From NCBI GenBank assembly GCA_963842885.1, contig CAWJIE010000004.1, forward strand, positions 288,001 to 352,000: a stretch of DNA of 64,000 nt, given 5' to 3'. A program made the translations under genes and the position numbers. A model generated the notes under the pieces. It had not been told where the DNA came from. It made no database searches and saw only the letters and a list, made by a program, of their open reading frames with translations. Source of the stretch: an uncultured Nitrososphaerota archaeon (GTDB taxonomy: Archaea > Thermoproteota > Nitrososphaeria > Conexivisphaerales > DTJL01). Positions 23,447-64,000 of this stretch are shown here, piece after piece (position 1 is the first letter of the stretch; each line of letters starts with the position of its first letter).

Positions 23447-24341
23447 TTAGCCGAACTGCAATTCTTTGAGAGCTTTAGCGAACACTGGTGCTACGGTCAC
23501 CTTGCTGAACTGATTCGGCACAGAATCTGACGTGATCAAGTGCTCCACGCCTGCCTTTGATACTCTCTCATAAGCCCCTTCCACGAAAAGGCCATGAGTG
23601 ATTAAGGCGTGGATGTGGTCGGCTCCTTTGCTCTTCAGTTGTTGGGCTACTTGGGCGATGGTTCCGCCGGTGCTAATGATGTCGTCTACCAGCACGATGT
23701 CGCGCCCACGTGGAGTTGCATGGCCCAAGTTGATATCTACAGATGTATCTCCATACCTTGTCTTCTGCATTACAACTGACTCGGCTCCAAATACATGTGC
23801 GGCCAAGCTAGCCCATTGCGCCGCTTCTCCGTCTGGGGCCACAATGATGGGATCATGGAGGCTGCACTGGGATTTCAGATGTTTAGCCAAGGAAGGGATC
23901 GCTGAAAGGTTGGCGGTAGGTATGTTGAACAACTCGTTCAGGTTATGGATTCTATGAAGGTGGCTGTCCAAGGTGAGGATGGCTGATGTTGGCGCAGATT
24001 CGATGATTTGGCTTATGATTCGAGCGCTAATGGCTTCCCCTGGTTTGAAACGGCTGTCTTGCCTGAGATAGGCCATGTAAGGGAAATATGCCTACGACGT
24101 TCTTAGCTCCAAGGTCTAGGAGGGTCTTCGCAAGGAAGACGTATTCCATCATCAGGCCATCTGGGTCTTTGTATAGTGACTGGGTGATTAAGGCCGTATC
24201 GTGTGGCAGTTCCTTTGTGAATCTCAGGTACCTTTCTCCGTCGGGGAAACGTCTAGTCTCGAAATCTATTACGTCGCAGGACAGACTTTCGGCAATCTTG
24301 AGCCCTAGGGGCTTGTTTCCCGACCCCGGCACAAGAAACAT
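23447..24341 (-). CDS. prs: Ribose-phosphate pyrophosphokinase (frameshift near 24080)
   Basis: FPDGE, YLRQD, APDGEA and VDDIISTGGT motifs over two ORFs. Confidence 0.92.
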
Positions 24342-24743: not shown

Positions 24744-24821
24744 GAGGCGACGCCAATTCACTGACTTTGCTCCTAGACGTGATGTTAAACTACTCTCCGA
24801 AGCTTTGTCCAAATCGGCTAG
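24744..24821 (+). repeat. Direct copy of a polC (DP2) segment at 63820-63897
   Basis: 24756-24815 is identical to 63832-63891 (60 bp); 78 bp with 4 transitions when extended. Confidence 0.92.
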
Positions 24822-25005: not shown

Positions 25006-26124
25006 TCAACTGCGTACTCGCGGGTTCCCGTACTGGTCCCAGCCTATGCCCAGGCCCTTCTCCACAACTCCCCTGAACAGAGCCTTCATCCTTCTCTCAG
25101 CCGCGTGGATATCTTGGACGGGCTTCTTGACAGCGAAGATGGCCGTCCCGCTTCTCAGGACACTTACATCGTAAAGGTCGTCCAACCTCAGCGTGCGGAA
25201 GAGTGGGCTACCCATCAGGATTGGTATCCCTTCGTGGTTTGAAAACGAATCCAGCCTTTCGAGGTCCAGCGTGAGGACCTTCTTGGGGTTGATAAAGTAG
25301 GTGCCTGTCCCGTCTCTCTTGCAAGAGTGTTCCATGAGGAAGGGCGAGACCTTAGTGGGCCTTCTGTTGCTCCCAGATACGGGACAGGAGGGCCTCTCCT
25401 TCAGCTTTATCGTATCGAAGCTAAAGTTGCGGAGGTCCACCATGAGCAGCTTGGACAAAAGAGAAGGTTCGGCCCCCGTCATTATCTTGACCGCCTCGGA
25501 GACTGCTATGCTCCCGACAATCCCGAGTATCGCAGGGTGAATGCCTACAACGGCGCAGGAGGGGACCGAGCCCTCCTGGAGGCCTCCGTAGAAGCATTCC
25601 AGGCAGGGGGTCTTCCCCGGCACTATCGTGATGACGGAGCCGAGCATTTCAATCGCTGAGGAGAAGACGTAAGGGACTTGCATTTCGTAGGCAGCCCTGT
25701 TCACTGCGTACCTAGCCCTTATGCCGTCCAGCCCATCTAGCACTACGTCGACGCCCCTGAGGTGCTCAAGCAAGCTTTCGTAGGTCAGGCTCTCAGCGAA
25801 TCCCTCAACCTTCACTGACGAATTCATCTCCTTCAGGCGGGCCAAGGCGCCTTCTATCTTCGGCCTTCCGGCGTCCGACTCCCTGTAGAGGTACTGGCGC
25901 TGGAGGTCAGTGAAGCTAACGATGTCCCTGTCTATAATCCTAATGGAGCCGATTCCCATGGATGCAAGCTGAACAAGGATAGGGACACCCAGGCCCCCGG
26001 CCCCTACTACGAGGACGGTGGAGCCCTTGAGCTTCTGTTGTCCCTCCCAGCCGATGTCTTGGAGGACAATCTGGCGTGAATACCTGTTGGCATCGGAGTC
26101 AGAAAGGGCTTCCTCAACCGTCAC
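25006..26124 (-). CDS. MoeB/ThiF/UbaA E1-like adenylyltransferase
   Basis: RYSRQI, GAGGLG, DRDIV, LQRQ and TPCLEC motifs. Confidence 0.93.
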   Translation of the reverse strand: MTVEEALSDSDANRYSRQIVLQDIGWEGQQKLKGSTVLVVGAGGLGVPILVQLASMGIGSIRIIDRDIVSFTDLQRQYLYRESDAGRPKIEGALARLKEMNSSVKVEGFAESLTYESLLEHLRGVDVVLDGLDGIRARYAVNRAAYEMQVPYVFSSAIEMLGSVITIVPGKTPCLECFYGGLQEGSVPSCAVVGIHPAILGIVGSIAVSEAVKIMTGAEPSLLSKLLMVDLRNFSFDTIKLKERPSCPVSGSNRRPTKVSPFLMEHSCKRDGTGTYFINPKKVLTLDLERLDSFSNHEGIPILMGSPLFRTLRLDDLYDVSVLRSGTAIFAVKKPVQDIHAAERRMKALFRGVVEKGLGIGWDQYGNPRVRS

Positions 26125-55208: not shown

Positions 55209-56639
55209 ATGGTGAGCCGTAAAGAGGATGAGGTTGCAATAGTAAGGAAGATGCTTGAGCTAGGCTACGAAGTCGAACTCGATGCGATTGGGGAGCTGCT
55301 TGATCAAGAAGGCGGACCTGAGCCAGTGCTTCGCATACTCGAAACTATAATGAAGATTAAGGCCAAGCAGCGTGGGAAGCATTTTGTTATTGGCTCTAAG
55401 GACGTTAAACCGTTTCTGCATGCCAATGCCGATTTGGGTGTATTGGAAAGAATCGTGCCGGACTTTAAGGTCATCTTCGATCCGACTGGAAGCATCAGCC
55501 CTACGGCTGACACATCTGGATATGTAGAGATGTTCAGGAGCAGGATTGAGAAGATGTCTTCCATCATACGAAACCGACCTGATTTCTTTCAAATTGAGAA
55601 ACTGAATGCCATCAAGACGCCAATTTCGGGCAAAAAGGTGTTAGCGAAAGTTGTAGGACTTGTCGTGTCAAAGAAGGTTTCTGAGGATTACACATCGTTA
55701 ACTTTGGAGGATGACAGTGGATACTTACGGTTGATGTGTACTGACGACGCGATGCGAAAGGTGGATGAGGTTTTGATTGACGAATTCGTCTTGGCGGAAG
55801 TCGAATCGTTACCTCGAGGGTATTATGCTAGGAACATCTATCATCCAGATTTGCCTGAAAAGTCTAAACGAACATCGGACGAAAGGGTTTATGCCGTTTT
55901 CGTCTCGGATCTTCATGTGGGGTCGGCGGATTTTGACGAGGCTGCCTTTCTAAAGATGATTAGTTGGCTGAATGGTGATTTCGGTGAGCTAGAAATCGTT
56001 TCTCGAGTCGGGTATTTGATTCTGAATGGAGACCTCGTTCAGAATCCGTTGGCTCGCGACGGTCATTTGAATGAGATGGGTGTGGAATCATATTACGACA
56101 TGCTCGCGGATTACTTGAGCAAAATCAAGAGACCGGTGAAGATCTTCGTCGTGCCGGGGGAAATGGATGCTACACGAATGGCGTTGCCTCAGCCTGCTAT
56201 CATCAGGAAATATGCGAGGAGGCTCTACGAAATGAAAGGCGTGTTGATGTTGGGTAACCCATCTATGATAAGCCTCAACGGCGTGATAGTCTTGCTCTAT
56301 CATGGGCAGAGCTTGGATGATGTCTTTAGACAGCTACAGTCCACCTCTTCGAGCAGGCCCTGTACTGGAATCCGTGCCTTGTTGAGAGCCAGACACATGG
56401 CTCCTACATATGGTGGATTGACTCCGTTGGCTCCTGAAAGAGAAGATCTTTTGATTGTAGATCCGGTTCCTGACATCGTACATTGTGGTCATGTTGGCAT
56501 TCCGGATGAAGATGTCTATAGAGGGACGTTGTTACTGTCTACTCCTTCCTGGGTTGTTGACATGAAATCGTCTGCTGGTAGCCAAGGTAAGGCAGCGCTG
56601 GTTGATTTATCGACCTTTGATGTTTTGTGGCGAGCATGA
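55209..56639 (+). CDS. polB: DNA polymerase D small subunit DP1, exonuclease motifs degenerate
   Basis: LEDDSG OB fold, SDLHVGS, YHGQSLDD and RHMAPTYGG; adjacent to cdc6. Confidence 0.88.
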   Translation: MVSRKEDEVAIVRKMLELGYEVELDAIGELLDQEGGPEPVLRILETIMKIKAKQRGKHFVIGSKDVKPFLHANADLGVLERIVPDFKVIFDPTGSISPTADTSGYVEMFRSRIEKMSSIIRNRPDFFQIEKLNAIKTPISGKKVLAKVVGLVVSKKVSEDYTSLTLEDDSGYLRLMCTDDAMRKVDEVLIDEFVLAEVESLPRGYYARNIYHPDLPEKSKRTSDERVYAVFVSDLHVGSADFDEAAFLKMISWLNGDFGELEIVSRVGYLILNGDLVQNPLARDGHLNEMGVESYYDMLADYLSKIKRPVKIFVVPGEMDATRMALPQPAIIRKYARRLYEMKGVLMLGNPSMISLNGVIVLLYHGQSLDDVFRQLQSTSSSRPCTGIRALLRARHMAPTYGGLTPLAPEREDLLIVDPVPDIVHCGHVGIPDEDVYRGTLLLSTPSWVVDMKSSAGSQGKAALVDLSTFDVLWRA

Positions 56640-56641
56640 CC

Positions 56642-57868
56642 TCAGAAAAGCGTTTTCATGGTTTCGTCGTCCTTCAGAGATGCTTCCACCACCTGTTGCG
56701 GTACCTCTAATCTAATCTTCTTTGATCTGCCCATCCTGCCTTTGCTCACCACCGGGGCAGAGACGAGGCCCAGTAGATCTAGCTCGCTGAGCAAACCGCT
56801 TACTCTCCTTTGTGTTAAAGGCTCAAGTCCGAGTTGTTTGGTGATGTCGATGTATTTTGCGTAGACATGGCCGGTGTTCTCTGCCTCTTTGAAGTATGAA
56901 ACTGTGAACAGTGTAAGCTTGCCATGAATCGGCAGTGATTGAATGGCTTCGAGCACGCGGTCTCTTTCTATGCTCTTTGAGGCCTCCTTCACGTGAGAGT
57001 CTGTGACGATTTCGGCGCCTTCTCTTTCAGCGAGCTCTCCAGCGACCCGCAGAAGGTCTACGGCGCGCCTTGCGTCTCCATGTTCTCCGGCTGCCATGCC
57101 CGCGCAAAGATTAACTGCGGCTTCGCTGACTTTCTCTTGAACGAAGGCCATCTCAATTCGTTCGTGTAGTATTGCTTTAAGTTCGTCCACGGAATAAGGA
57201 GAAAACACTATTTCCTCCTCATTGAGGCTACTGAGGACCCTAGGATCGAGGGATTCCTTGAACTTGAGGTCATTTGATATGCCAACGAGTGCGATGAATG
57301 CGTTGTTAGTTAGGTTCTCGTTGGCCCTGGTGAATTCATAGAGTAAGTTGTCGCCAGAAGATTTCACCATGAAGTCGATTTCATCTAATATGAATATCGT
57401 CTTCAGAGAATCTTCTCTTATCTTGGTGGTGATTCTGTTGAAGGCTTCGCTGAGAGACAACCCGGTAAATGGAAGTATAACTCCAAGACTGGAAGCTAGT
57501 TCCGAGAGGATTCTGTATTCTGTCGAGGCGATACGTGTGTTAACATATGCTGTTCGGACGTTTGTATCAATGGTCTTGCTCTTTTCCGCCATGCGTTTTA
57601 GGACATATTTCGTGACGACGGTCTTACCCGTGCCTGTCTTGCCATAGATGAGAAGGCTAGATGGTTTGTGACCTGTTAAAGCAGGGGATAGAATTTGAGC
57701 GACGCCTTTAATTTGAGCATCTCTGAAGTGAATCTGATTTGGGATGAACTCGTTTCTAAGGACGTTCCTATTGATGAATAGTGTTTTACCGCTTATCGCT
57801 CTTTCGAAGATATCATCTAATGAATCGGAAGGTTGGTTTGTCAAGGGCCCCCGCCCCAATATTTCCAC
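56642..57868 (-). CDS. cdc6: Orc1/Cdc6 replication initiator (start probably near 57844)
   Basis: YGKTGTGKT, LDEID, LDPRVLSSL and HGDARRA motifs; wing GRMGRS. Confidence 0.97.
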   Translation of the reverse strand: MEILGRGPLTNQPSDSLDDIFERAISGKTLFINRNVLRNEFIPNQIHFRDAQIKGVAQILSPALTGHKPSSLLIYGKTGTGKTVVTKYVLKRMAEKSKTIDTNVRTAYVNTRIASTEYRILSELASSLGVILPFTGLSLSEAFNRITTKIREDSLKTIFILDEIDFMVKSSGDNLLYEFTRANENLTNNAFIALVGISNDLKFKESLDPRVLSSLNEEEIVFSPYSVDELKAILHERIEMAFVQEKVSEAAVNLCAGMAAGEHGDARRAVDLLRVAGELAEREGAEIVTDSHVKEASKSIERDRVLEAIQSLPIHGKLTLFTVSYFKEAENTGHVYAKYIDITKQLGLEPLTQRRVSGLLSELDLLGLVSAPVVSKGRMGRSKKIRLEVPQQVVEASLKDDETMKTLF

Positions 57869-61097: not shown

Positions 61098-64000
61098 TTG
61101 GGACTTAATCGAGAGAAGCCAAACCTTGACGTAATTCAAAGAACCCTTAAACAACTTGAAGGCATGCCGTTGCAGGCATACTATGAAGGCATTTCCGATT
61201 CCTATCAGAGAGCATATCGATACACCATAACCGTAAAGGAGAAAAGCAACGACCCAGATCCTTGGCCACAATCACAAGAAGTATGTGACAAAGCAGATCG
61301 ACTTGAGGCACTCACACAAATCCACGGAATCGACAAACGACTCCGGGAGTATGAATCAAGCTCCTCAGTCGTCGAGACCGCTCTCAAGCTGTCTGAAGAC
61401 ATAGCGCTCGGCCACTTCGGTTTCTTCGAAAAAGAACAAACCTTGAATTTAGCCATAAAAGCCTCAGTTGCAGTTGTGACATCTTATGTGAGCGCTCTCC
61501 CTGTAGAGGACATCACAAAGGTCGTCATCAAGAAGAACGGTGATGGCACGCTTTATCCAGCCGTCTTCTTCGGTCAGATATCAAACATCATCTCTCCGCT
61601 TCAAGCTTCGTTTCTCCTCCTTATCGTCGACAAAATACGAATCATGGTCGGCTTGGATAAATATCACGTTAACTCCACGGGCGAGGACGAGATTGCCCGG
61701 TTCTTAGAAGAAGTTGGTGCGTATGAAAGGGAAGTAGGTCCCTTTGAATCGCACATCAACGAGAGCCACCTGCGTCTGGTCCTGCAAAACTTGCCTATCG
61801 AAGTTGATGGCTATGGAACCGAGGATTTTGAAGTCTTGATTAACAGAGGACTCAGTAGGATCAGAGACAACAGACTCAGAGGCGGCGCCCTGCATGTTCT
61901 AATCGAGGGAATCATCGGCAACTCAGCTCGTCTTTACTCTCTGTCAAAGGAACTGCAGCTACAGGAATGGACTTGGTTGACCGGCCTGGATAACGCCGGG
62001 AAGCCGAAAGGTCCTGGAGACCTCCAATCTTACATTCTCAACGCGAAGCCTGGCAAACCTGTTTTGTCGTTACCAGACAGGCAAGGGAGTTTTCGACTGC
62101 GCTACGGCAGGGCTCAAAATACCGGGTATGGTTGCTTCGGATTCCACCCTGCTGTCCTTGAACTCCTCGATTTCCCTATAACCACGGGAACGCAAATCAA
62201 AGTTAGCATCGCTAACCGGACCGGGTCTGTAGCCGTAGTCGACTCTCTGGAGCCCCCAATCATACGGCTTAACAATGGTGACACATGCAGGGTTGATAGC
62301 ACCGATCAGGCCAGGGCTTTGAAGGAACAAGTGGAATCCATCATTCATCTAGGGGATGTACTAGTATCACCCAACGAATTCTCCAGTTCGGGCAGCAAGC
62401 TGGAGCCATCAGGCTACGTCGAGGAGTGGTGGATTTCGGACCTTCACAGGAGTCAAGAAGATAGACACCTCGACTTGCAACAGCTTTCAGCCCTCACAAC
62501 CCTCGACATCAACAGGCTTCAGATGATGTTGACTAATCCTCTCTCCGTCAGACCGACCCTTTCCGAGTCAATACAACTTTGTGATGTGATAGGAATTCCC
62601 CTTCACCCTCGCTACTTGTACTACTGGGACGCACTCACCATAAAAGACGTATTTACGCTGAGAGAGAACATTGTAGACTACAAGGATGTGAGACCAGACA
62701 CCCGCTCTCTCACATTCATATACTCCCAACAAACCAAACGAATCCTCGACGCAGCCGGGATTCCGCACAAACTCTCAGCCTCTTTGCTAACTGTCTCAGG
62801 AGATGACGCGAGAACAACATATCTGACCTTGGCTCCGGACAAAACGATTCCTCTCGGGGCCACGTATTCTGATACTCTGACTCTTCTCAAGTTCCTATGT
62901 GGCTTCGAACTAAAAAAGAAAGCATCGACACTTGTTGGTGTAGCAATGAGGCGGGTTGAGATAGCTAGCGAACGAAAAATGAGACCGCCTGTGCACGTGT
63001 TATTTCCCGTTGGAACGAAGGCCGGACTTTCTCGAGATCTTCTGCAATTCTCGCGCTCACCGTCTAAAGTAGAAATCCGCATGAGAGTATGTCCTTCCTG
63101 TAACTCACAATCGCCATATGAATCGTGTCCGTTCTGCGAATCGCGGACTTCACAGCTGTATTATTGCACAACTTGCAGAAAGGAGAGCCGTGATGCAACG
63201 TGTCCAGACTGTGGAAACACGACATCTGATTCTGTGACTGCCGTCCCCCGGATGCAAGATCTCCTAAGGGCCGCTTCGACTAGTCTAAGCCTCCAACCTT
63301 ATCCTCCCCTTAAGGGCGTGATCAAACTCTCTAACCGTTTGCTGATGCCCGAACGACTAGAGAAAGGCATTCTTAGACAAAGGCATAACCTTACCGGCTT
63401 CAAAGACGGAACAACCAGATACGACACGGTCAATGCGCCACTGACTCATTTCAAGCCCTCTCAGTTTCACATGAACATCAAGACTCTTCATGACTTGGGC
63501 TATACCATAGATAGATACGGCCAACCCCTTGAGTCAGAAGAGCAAATCCTAGAACTCAAGCCGCAGGACGTGATTCTCCCTGAGGAAAGCGGCGATTATT
63601 TCAAAAGGCTGGCTGCATACTTAGACGACCTTCTGTCCCGTTTCTCCAAGGTAGAAACCTACTACAACGTTCAGAATCAAGAAGACCTGCTCGGCACTCT
63701 CGTGGTTGGGATATCTCCCAAGGCCTCGATTGGCGTCATAGGCAGAATCATAGGCTTCACAAGTGCGCGAATTTGTTATGCTCATCCAATGTGGCATGCA
63801 GCTAAGCATCGCGATTGTGGAGGTGACGTCGATTCACTGACTTTGCTCCTAGACGTGATGTTAAACTACTCTCCGAAGCTTTGTCCAAATCAGCTAGGGG
63901 GACTACTCGACGTCCCCTTCATGATCGAGCCAATCGTCTTACCCCCAATTATGTCCAAAGGAACCTCATTCGACGCATTAGATTCATACACCCAAGAATT
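61098..64000 (+). CDS. polC: DNA polymerase D large subunit DP2, divergent, runs off the window end
   Basis: The TTG at 61098 and the motif at 63795 are in the same frame; motifs include FRLRYGR, GYVEEWW, PLHPRY, ERLEKGILR, FKDGTTRYD, KPQDVIL and YAHPMWHAAKHRDCGGD. Confidence 0.92.
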   Translation, partial: MGLNREKPNLDVIQRTLKQLEGMPLQAYYEGISDSYQRAYRYTITVKEKSNDPDPWPQSQEVCDKADRLEALTQIHGIDKRLREYESSSSVVETALKLSEDIALGHFGFFEKEQTLNLAIKASVAVVTSYVSALPVEDITKVVIKKNGDGTLYPAVFFGQISNIISPLQASFLLLIVDKIRIMVGLDKYHVNSTGEDEIARFLEEVGAYEREVGPFESHINESHLRLVLQNLPIEVDGYGTEDFEVLINRGLSRIRDNRLRGGALHVLIEGIIGNSARLYSLSKELQLQEWTWLTGLDNAGKPKGPGDLQSYILNAKPGKPVLSLPDRQGSFRLRYGRAQNTGYGCFGFHPAVLELLDFPITTGTQIKVSIANRTGSVAVVDSLEPPIIRLNNGDTCRVDSTDQARALKEQVESIIHLGDVLVSPNEFSSSGSKLEPSGYVEEWWISDLHRSQEDRHLDLQQLSALTTLDINRLQMMLTNPLSVRPTLSESIQLCDVIGIPLHPRYLYYWDALTIKDVFTLRENIVDYKDVRPDTRSLTFIYSQQTKRILDAAGIPHKLSASLLTVSGDDARTTYLTLAPDKTIPLGATYSDTLTLLKFLCGFELKKKASTLVGVAMRRVEIASERKMRPPVHVLFPVGTKAGLSRDLLQFSRSPSKVEIRMRVCPSCNSQSPYESCPFCESRTSQLYYCTTCRKESRDATCPDCGNTTSDSVTAVPRMQDLLRAASTSLSLQPYPPLKGVIKLSNRLLMPERLEKGILRQRHNLTGFKDGTTRYDTVNAPLTHFKPSQFHMNIKTLHDLGYTIDRYGQPLESEEQILELKPQDVILPEESGDYFKRLAAYLDDLLSRFSKVETYYNVQNQEDLLGTLVVGISPKASIGVIGRIIGFTSARICYAHPMWHAAKHRDCGGDVDSLTLLLDVMLNYSPKLCPNQLGGLLDVPFMIEPIVLPPIMSKGTSFDALDSYTQE

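Follow-up and report, generated by a model that had tools for sequence, protein, structure and literature searches.

The D-family DNA polymerase (PolD) is regarded as the essential replicase in most archaea other than Crenarchaeota. It consists of a large subunit, DP2, and a small subunit, DP1, and we take the forms from Pyrococcus abyssi and Thermococcus sp. 9°N (PDB 5IJL, 6T8H and 6HMS) as the canonical enzyme. Inactivated PolD is known in outline, because Kazlauskas et al. (2020) noted two or three related metagenome-assembled genomes (MAGs), UBA160, UBA164 and one more, with an inactivated DP1, no active DP2 and no family B DNA polymerase (PolB) with a Cys-rich C-terminal domain. Here we analyze a stretch of 64,000 nucleotides (the window) from an uncultured Nitrososphaerota archaeon of the order Conexivisphaerales (GenBank assembly GCA_963842885.1, contig CAWJIE010000004.1, positions 288,001 to 352,000), which carries the genes for both PolD subunits. 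We put the probability at roughly three in four that both subunits have lost catalysis and that selection keeps them as a non-catalytic component of the replisome. This genus is a new case of the phenomenon, and the least-eroded one. What we say about Kazlauskas et al. (2020), Zatopek et al. (2020), Raia et al. (2019), Sauguet et al. (2016), Oki et al. (2021) and Madru et al. (2020) refers to excerpts of these papers.

In its architecture the PolD of the window resembles the canonical enzyme. The three domains of DP2, the Cys residues of the Zn-I, Zn-II and Zn-III sites, the YRRPP loop and a C-terminal tail that looks like a PCNA-interacting peptide (PIP) are shared. So are the N-terminal domain and the OB and phosphodiesterase (PDE) fold of DP1, and the placement of the DP1 and DP2 genes on either side of orc1/cdc6. 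Unlike canonical PolD, the DP2 of the window has replaced the first catalytic, metal-binding Asp, the triphosphate-binding Arg of the a-motif, the b-motif Lys, the steric-gate His and the PIRxxGGT sequence, and in its DP1 motif III has lost GNHD and motif V one of its His residues.

The group of Kazlauskas et al. (2020), which we compare by its published description only, also belongs to the class Nitrososphaeria. Its inactivated DP1, its inactive DP2 and its main PolB ending in a PIP-like tail without Cys motifs all have counterparts in the window genome, which fits the published description in having an inactivated DP1, no active DP2 and no Cys-rich PolB C-terminus (the last judged by eye). 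The excerpt describes no full-length, selected DP2, and its authors deem conclusions premature. Compared with that group, DP2 in the genus of the window has all domains and 74–76% of the invariant columns, at the least-eroded end of a series that spans the order. Beyond Kazlauskas et al. (2020), we found, within the collection of papers searched, no further report of an inactivated PolD in Conexivisphaerales or Nitrososphaeria. The inactive PolD of Hodarchaeales (Heimdall_B3/LC3-like) likewise has a full-length DP2 without the catalytic Asp (Kazlauskas et al. 2020). The Hodarchaeales belong to another phylum and represent an independent loss. Their inactive PolD co-occurs with a PolB that has a Zn-binding C-terminal domain, whereas none was seen in the PolB of our genome.

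A separation of structural from catalytic roles has been argued for eukaryotic DNA polymerase epsilon (Pol epsilon). Its C-terminal half and Dpb2 are likewise an inactivated polymerase module and an inactivated phosphoesterase subunit that have been kept, although the polymerase fold there is that of family B and here is the two-barrel fold. In Pol epsilon, too, the N-terminal domain of the small subunit leads to GINS: the N-terminal domain of DP1 (DP1N) binds Gins51C, and this pair is structurally equivalent to Dpb2N–Psf1C (Oki et al. 2021). By analogy, we infer that a dead PolD would resemble the essential non-catalytic half of Pol epsilon together with Dpb2.

The identity of the DP2 gene is clear. 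The initial annotation had described a DP2 frame open for more than 960 codons near cdc6, and this is what we find (Table 1). Pfam recognizes all three domains, namely PF03833 (PolC_DP2_N), PF24844 (central) and PF24846 (catalytic), with 188.9, 303.5 and 275.3 bits (cut-off 24.3) and E-values of 1.3e-55, 2.5e-90 and 6.5e-82. The score against TIGR00354 is 739.9 bits, above the cut-off of 702.15; against PRK04023 it is 809.5, under the cut-off of 1269. DP2 structures of P. abyssi match the window DP2 at an E-value of 3.7e-168.

Table 1. Features of the PolD locus and related elements. Positions refer to the window, except in the last row, which refers to another contig of the same genome.
Feature	Position	Strand	Basis and remarks
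DP2 (PolD large subunit) gene	61098..64000, on past window end	+	967 residues without stop; Pfam, TIGR00354
KH-like template-binding loop of DP2	61566..61604	+	Alignments; canonical PIRxxGGT replaced by QISNIISP
b-motif of DPBB-1 (first double-psi beta-barrel) of DP2	62193..62225	+	Alignments; KxxRxxK replaced by KxxIxxR, primer-3'-end Lys to Arg
s-motif of DP2	63708..63734	+	Alignments; PHT replaced by PKA, steric-gate His to Lys
a-motif (acidic motif) of DP2, HAAKHRDCGGDVDS	63795..63836	+	Alignments; first invariant catalytic Asp to Gly, first Arg of KRR to His
DP1 (PolD small subunit) gene	55209..56639	+	Pfam DNA_pol_E_B, E 3.3e-20; N-terminal domain and OB/PDE fold kept, exonuclease site disabled
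DP1 phosphodiesterase motif III	56154..56171	+	Alignments; GNHD replaced by GEMD, metal-ligand Asn and proton-donor His lost
DP1 motif V	56487..56504	+	Alignments; GHVH replaced by GHVG, second metal-ligand His lost
Orc1/Cdc6 initiator gene between DP1 and DP2	56642..57868	-	Pfam Cdc6_lid, Cdc6_C, AAA
78-bp copy of DP2 stretch 63820-63897	24744..24821	+	blastn, 74/78 identical; intergenic
Main family B polymerase, 1709-amino-acid frame	G000:C5:348276-353402		Two inteins, one each in motifs B and C

DP2 has five lesions. The catalytic a-, b- and s-motifs account for four of them and the KH-like loop for the fifth. We compared the window with a canonical set of 66 DP2s, made up of 63 of the 76 loci L039–L114, those with a frame of 1050–1350 amino acids (the other 13 were excluded as truncated or over-long), and three sequences from other orders of the class. 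Aligned to P. abyssi, the a-motif reads KHRDCGGDVD where the canonical enzyme has KRRNCDGDED. The codon GGA at 63819–63821 encodes G908 in the column of the first catalytic Asp, which holds Asp in 64 and Glu in two of the 66 canonical sequences. The second catalytic Asp is retained (DCGGD), and the two-Asp form of an active DP2 (NxDGD) is absent. The b-motif Lys and the steric-gate His are each present in 66/66 canonical DP2s; the former is Arg or His in the congeners. In the KH-like loop, all seven near-invariant columns are altered, where near-invariant means at least 95% invariance among the 66 canonical DP2s (178 columns in all). The N-terminal stretches TSYVSALP and GQISNIISP stand where P. 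abyssi has TEGIVSAP and GPIRSSGGT. The initial annotation had named the Gly codon within HRDCGGDVD, the two eroded N-terminal stretches and a degenerate DP1 as signs of a possibly dead PolD. The alignments bear out each of these signs, and the five lesions, at functionally supported positions and beside a DP1 without GNHD, point to a dead enzyme. Elsewhere the protein has changed less: the three unbroken congeners keep 132–136 of the 178 near-invariant columns (74–76%), and the first open reading frame (ORF) of the window keeps 118, a count that leaves out its C-terminal piece. The losses cluster in functional motifs.

Mutants of active PolDs suggest what such changes would do. In Thermococcus sp. 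9°N, D966A abolishes activity, as does D964A, and the equivalent changes in P. horikoshii have the same effect; R960A lowers extension, K398A leaves less than 15% of primers extended, and H931R and H931Y at the steric gate kill polymerase activity (Zatopek et al. 2020). The Lys-to-Arg change equivalent to that in our b-motif abolished transcription in Escherichia coli RNA polymerase (Zatopek et al. 2020). Strict conservation in PolD is limited to the two Asp of 956-DGD-958 (Sauguet et al. 2016; Raia et al. 2019), and the KH-like loop adjoins the first template base (Raia et al. 2019). As a separate observation, two Woesearchaeota records (L100 and L101) are otherwise canonical DP2s that read DCEGDE, with Glu for the first catalytic Asp.

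The small subunit carries lesions of its own. DP1 structures of P. abyssi match the window DP1 at an E-value of 6.4e-68. An active exonuclease has five motifs with seven metal ligands and a proton-donor His; compared with P. abyssi DP1 and 23 other DP1s, the window DP1 retains motifs I (DxH), II (D) and IV (H) and departs from this pattern at motif III, now GEMD, and motif V, now GHVG. H451 of motif III is essential for nuclease activity, and H563 and H565 are the ligands of motif V (Sauguet et al. 2016). The aligned PDB chain carries H451A, hence the wild-type His is taken from Sauguet et al. (2016) and from four outgroup DP1s. We examined 24 of the 30 loci fetched: GNHD is present in none of the 20 DP1s of the order and in all four from other orders of the class. 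Judging from these alignments, the loss of the exonuclease therefore probably dates to the root of the order or earlier. The DP1s of one genus of the order (g6; L140, L132 and L138) are only 398–406 amino acids long and are without the N-terminal GINS-binding domain common to the order's other DP1s; they still hold motifs I, II, IV and V.

The loss of the first Asp in DP2 is not due to chance or sequencing error, because it is found in three congeners, in 12 database clusters and in the contigs of three sequencing runs. All three congeners that have a DP2 read DCGGD; in a fourth, 88% complete, neither DP2 nor DP1 was found. Among the best 120 hits from a collection of 5.8 billion proteins, the 12 clusters with an identity of at least 60% have all lost the first Asp: Gly takes its place in ten, the window's own protein among them, and Ser in the other two. 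The second Asp has become Glu in two of the 12. The other 108 hits, all more distant, retain the first Asp without exception. The database relatives P0005, P0007 and P0014 belong to this clade, and two clusters with the second Asp changed read CGGEVD; the most distant of these relatives (60% identity) still has KRR and the Lys of the b-motif, a hint that the losses came in a certain order. The initial annotation had proposed confirming the codon in reads. Contigs of the runs X1 and X2 (one study) and X3 (another) cover it with no difference listed there, although each of these contigs has one difference without a placed position. This evidence consists of contigs of runs and not raw reads, and one of the three runs may be the assembly's own source, which makes their independence less than full.

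A second suggestion, to look at selection across relatives, also supports the idea that PolD is kept. In all six pairs among four congeners the proportion of nonsynonymous differences (pN) is 0.21–0.28, compared with 0.75–0.81 for synonymous differences (pS). Synonymous sites are saturated at such values (pS of at least 0.75), and for this reason we give pN and pS and no dN/dS ratio. Strain-level differences in DP2 number seven, of which six are synonymous and one changes Ile to Val. Out of 180 columns invariant in canonical DP2s, the clade has kept 134, swapped 15 for another fixed residue and become variable in 31 (within-clade conservation was computed on 10 full-length sequences). The most conserved stretches of the clade include the a-motif, the s-motif and FRLRYGR of DPBB-1, at 0.81–0.85 versus 0.62 overall. 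The orthologous genes of the congeners are unbroken. By these sequence comparisons DP2 is stable and selected within the genus and is not decaying.

What could selection be acting on? The parts of PolD that contact other proteins have been retained. DP1N is kept in the alignment. The C-terminal domain of DP2 lies just outside the window, in a piece of 163 amino acids discussed below; there, the Zn-III site keeps its four Cys (CxxC...CxxC), the KxRRxP loop reads TYRRPP, with Thr for the first Lys, and the chain ends in a PIP-like QxxIxxYV. The interaction module is present, and a tail of the form Qxx[LI]xx[FY] ends every DP2 form that we inspected in the order. A complex model of DP1 (residues 100–476) with the C-terminal piece scored 0.74, the best control scoring 0.00, and it places the RRPPL loop inside DP1. 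The model runs share at least 51% of contacts, and the predicted local distance difference test (pLDDT) value of the partner is at least 66. The score mark is one that 58/80 solved complexes and 2/110 mismatched pairs reach, and since solved complexes of this kind exist the model's success may be a memory effect. The PIP at the C-terminal end of DP2 is a binding site for PCNA as well as for primase (Madru et al. 2020).

These retained modules suggest how a dead PolD could work. The heterodimer would no longer polymerize or proofread. DP1N would tether it to GINS and the Cdc45–MCM–GINS (CMG) complex, DP2 would hold on to DP1 through its Zn-III loop, and the tail Qxx[IL]xx[FY] would bind PCNA, primase or both. 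The two-barrel cleft, still conserved, may grip DNA. The dead heterodimer would then bridge CMG, primase and PCNA, while an intein-bearing PolB would do the bulk of the synthesis. The initial annotation had proposed a non-catalytic scaffold; the modules for contacts with GINS, between DP1 and DP2, and with PCNA or primase are indeed there, and the scaffold role itself is what we infer from them.

Several observations weigh against a dead but selected PolD. First, the a-motif retains three Asp (D906, D910 and D912). Second, the conservation of the a- and s-motifs (0.81 versus 0.62) is not obviously needed by a pure scaffold. Third, inactivity is argued by analogy with mutants of Thermococcus and Pyrococcus, and neither the steric-gate Lys nor the b-motif Arg is among the PolD variants reported in the excerpt of Zatopek et al. 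(2020). Fourth, the scaffold role and its partners are read from retained motifs only. Fifth, in the window's own assembly DP2 is frameshifted. Finally, the genome is 87% complete, which leaves some room for a second PolD.

The alternative that survives best, although we consider it unlikely, is that PolD remains active, either as a polymerase or as some other nucleotidyl transferase, and that its metal site has been remodelled. D906 (the thaumarchaeal Asp), D910 and D912 would replace the lost Asp, and the remaining substitutions would tune specificity, for example for slow or specialized synthesis. DCGGDVD does offer three acidic residues, and N962D is active and native in Thaumarchaeota, so that a motif starting with Asp instead of Asn is compatible with activity (Zatopek et al. 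2020). Conservation of the a-motif, the s-motif and FRLRYGR is the strongest point for the view that the cleft still acts, be it in binding DNA or a nucleotide, and the retention of about three quarters of the near-invariant columns fits it too. An active enzyme is difficult to reconcile with D964A, which by itself abolishes activity, with five functional motifs altered together, and with the parallel loss of the DP1 exonuclease. Moreover, the second Asp is Glu in two cluster representatives, and in sister genera of the order all acidic residues are gone and the gene is still kept.

It is far less probable that DP2 is a pseudogene on its way out, already broken at its 3' end. The genome-level frame does end 31 codons past the window, after 998 codons, and the Zn-III domain with the tail follows in the +1 frame as an ORF of 163 amino acids. 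The contig's recorded protein (972 amino acids) is this truncated form. One family of the order (two genomes, 86% and 68% complete), in which neither DP1 nor DP2 was found, is also what one would expect if the gene were being lost. The cause of the split is a single extra base 70 nucleotides beyond the window end (G000:C4; L006:4473). The contigs of all three runs that cover the site, from both studies, do not have this base, and in them the frames join, although here, too, one run may be the source of the assembly, so that the runs are not fully independent. Three strain differences that lie past the shift change no amino acid when they are read in the shifted frame, DP2 frames of 1155–1180 amino acids are unbroken in three congeners, and a relative from the database with 92% identity over the catalytic part is 1130 amino acids long, with a normal C-terminus. 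Because the base is absent in the runs, the differences downstream are synonymous and the relatives are unbroken, the frameshift is probably an assembly error or a private variant rather than decay; that pN is well under pS also contradicts a pseudogene. Programmed frameshifting at the 3' end was considered and rejected, because three assemblies lack the extra base.

It is hardly credible, even for a metagenome assembly of 87% completeness, that the Gly codon stems from an error in sequencing or assembly, or that this DP2 is a paralogue undergoing decay alongside a canonical PolD, given that the lost Asp is common to three congeners and 12 database clusters, that three runs list no difference at the codon, that profile searches find a single PF24846 and a single PF04042 match (one DP2 and one DP1) and no canonical PolD elsewhere in this genome, and that the only other DP2-like DNA is a fragment of 78 bp.

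This fragment lies between ORFs ending at 24341 and starting at 25006, with the second base of the Gly codon as its left border. The copy is present in runs X1–X3, where contigs have loose ends at both of its borders. No second copy of the stretch was found in the four congeners searched. A protein match of 42% over 71 residues at the copy rests on 26 near-identical residues. We considered the copy as a second DP2 or as donor of the Gly codon and rejected it as a second gene: it is only 78 bp long and was not found in the four congeners.

The catalytically dead and selected PolD that we favor can also be viewed against the rest of the order. A search of 41 related genomes with P0001 gave a match in 35, and the DP2s of the order form one clade with SH-like support of 100 (FastTree, 47 rows, of which eight belong to the order and the others are 39 of the 66 canonical DP2s). 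Terminal branches measure 0.25–0.32 in this genus and 1.15–3.11 in the others of the order (median 0.24), and because of these long branches the placement within the clade is unsure. The Pfam score of the catalytic domain falls from 291 bits in a congener to 225, 217 and 199 in other genera of the family and then to 75, 31.5 and 19; in one genus of the order the search gave no match. In parallel, the number of invariant columns kept drops from 136 to 89, 84, 76 and 70. Sister genera have lost all acidic residues and still have the gene. In other families of the order (L017–L035), relics of 687–845 amino acids keep the Zn-finger Cys, the C-terminal domain and the tail; most of the two-barrel core is gone, and Pfam barely recognizes or misses them. 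These relics always stand beside an exonuclease-dead DP1. The initial annotation had suggested an intermediate stage of loss: the graded series across the order agrees with this, and the stable, selected state within the genus does not. Tentatively, one could read the order as a natural deletion series of PolD, from the full architecture with dead sites through forms that have lost all Asp to relics of 700–850 amino acids, a series that would reveal an essential structural job (a link between CMG/GINS, primase and PCNA) separable from synthesis.

If PolD does not synthesize DNA, another enzyme must. The search for a second polC and for PolB genes, also proposed at the outset, found no other polC in the genome and an intact, intein-bearing PolB on contig C5. 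In this PolB, Exo I–III and DFASLYPS are intact, motif C (YGD/TDS) spans an intein, and the C-terminus is PIP-like, with no Cys-rich domain seen on inspection by eye. Judging from these motifs, it is likely the replicase. A second PolB on contig C3 has HGIVDS at motif C. PolB is present in 39 of the 41 genomes, and the PolB frames of other family members are also long (1019–1372 amino acids).

As for the surroundings, the genes run in the order DP1, orc1/cdc6 (minus strand), a TrmB-like regulator, Elf1, a PcrB-family gene (PF01884) and DP2. The host genome is a metagenome assembly of 2.03 Mb in 11 contigs. Among named public records the closest, at 57–66% identity, are MAGs that bear the label Conexivisphaerales, Nitrososphaerales or Nitrososphaerota archaeon, which places the organism among the non-marine Nitrososphaeria. 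We regard it as an archaeon of soil and peat, and the runs containing the sequence are peat and freshwater metagenomes.

Our results have a practical side, in that the label "DNA polymerase II large subunit" in this clade does not mean a working PolD. What they add to the known outline is the graded decay across the order and the persistent conservation of a dead cleft. A lineage that keeps both subunits under selection with both sites disabled would separate the structural from the catalytic role of PolD, and it would offer a model, from archaea, of the way in which the inactive B-subunits and C-terminal domains of eukaryotic polymerases came to be fixed. A graded series within one order would show which parts of PolD are dispensable and which are not, and it gives testable proteins. 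If the reading as a deletion series is true, the series would retrace the eukaryotic route to keeping only a C-terminal domain and an inactive B-subunit, and the conserved two-barrel cleft in this genus may bind primer-template DNA as a non-synthesizing clamp.

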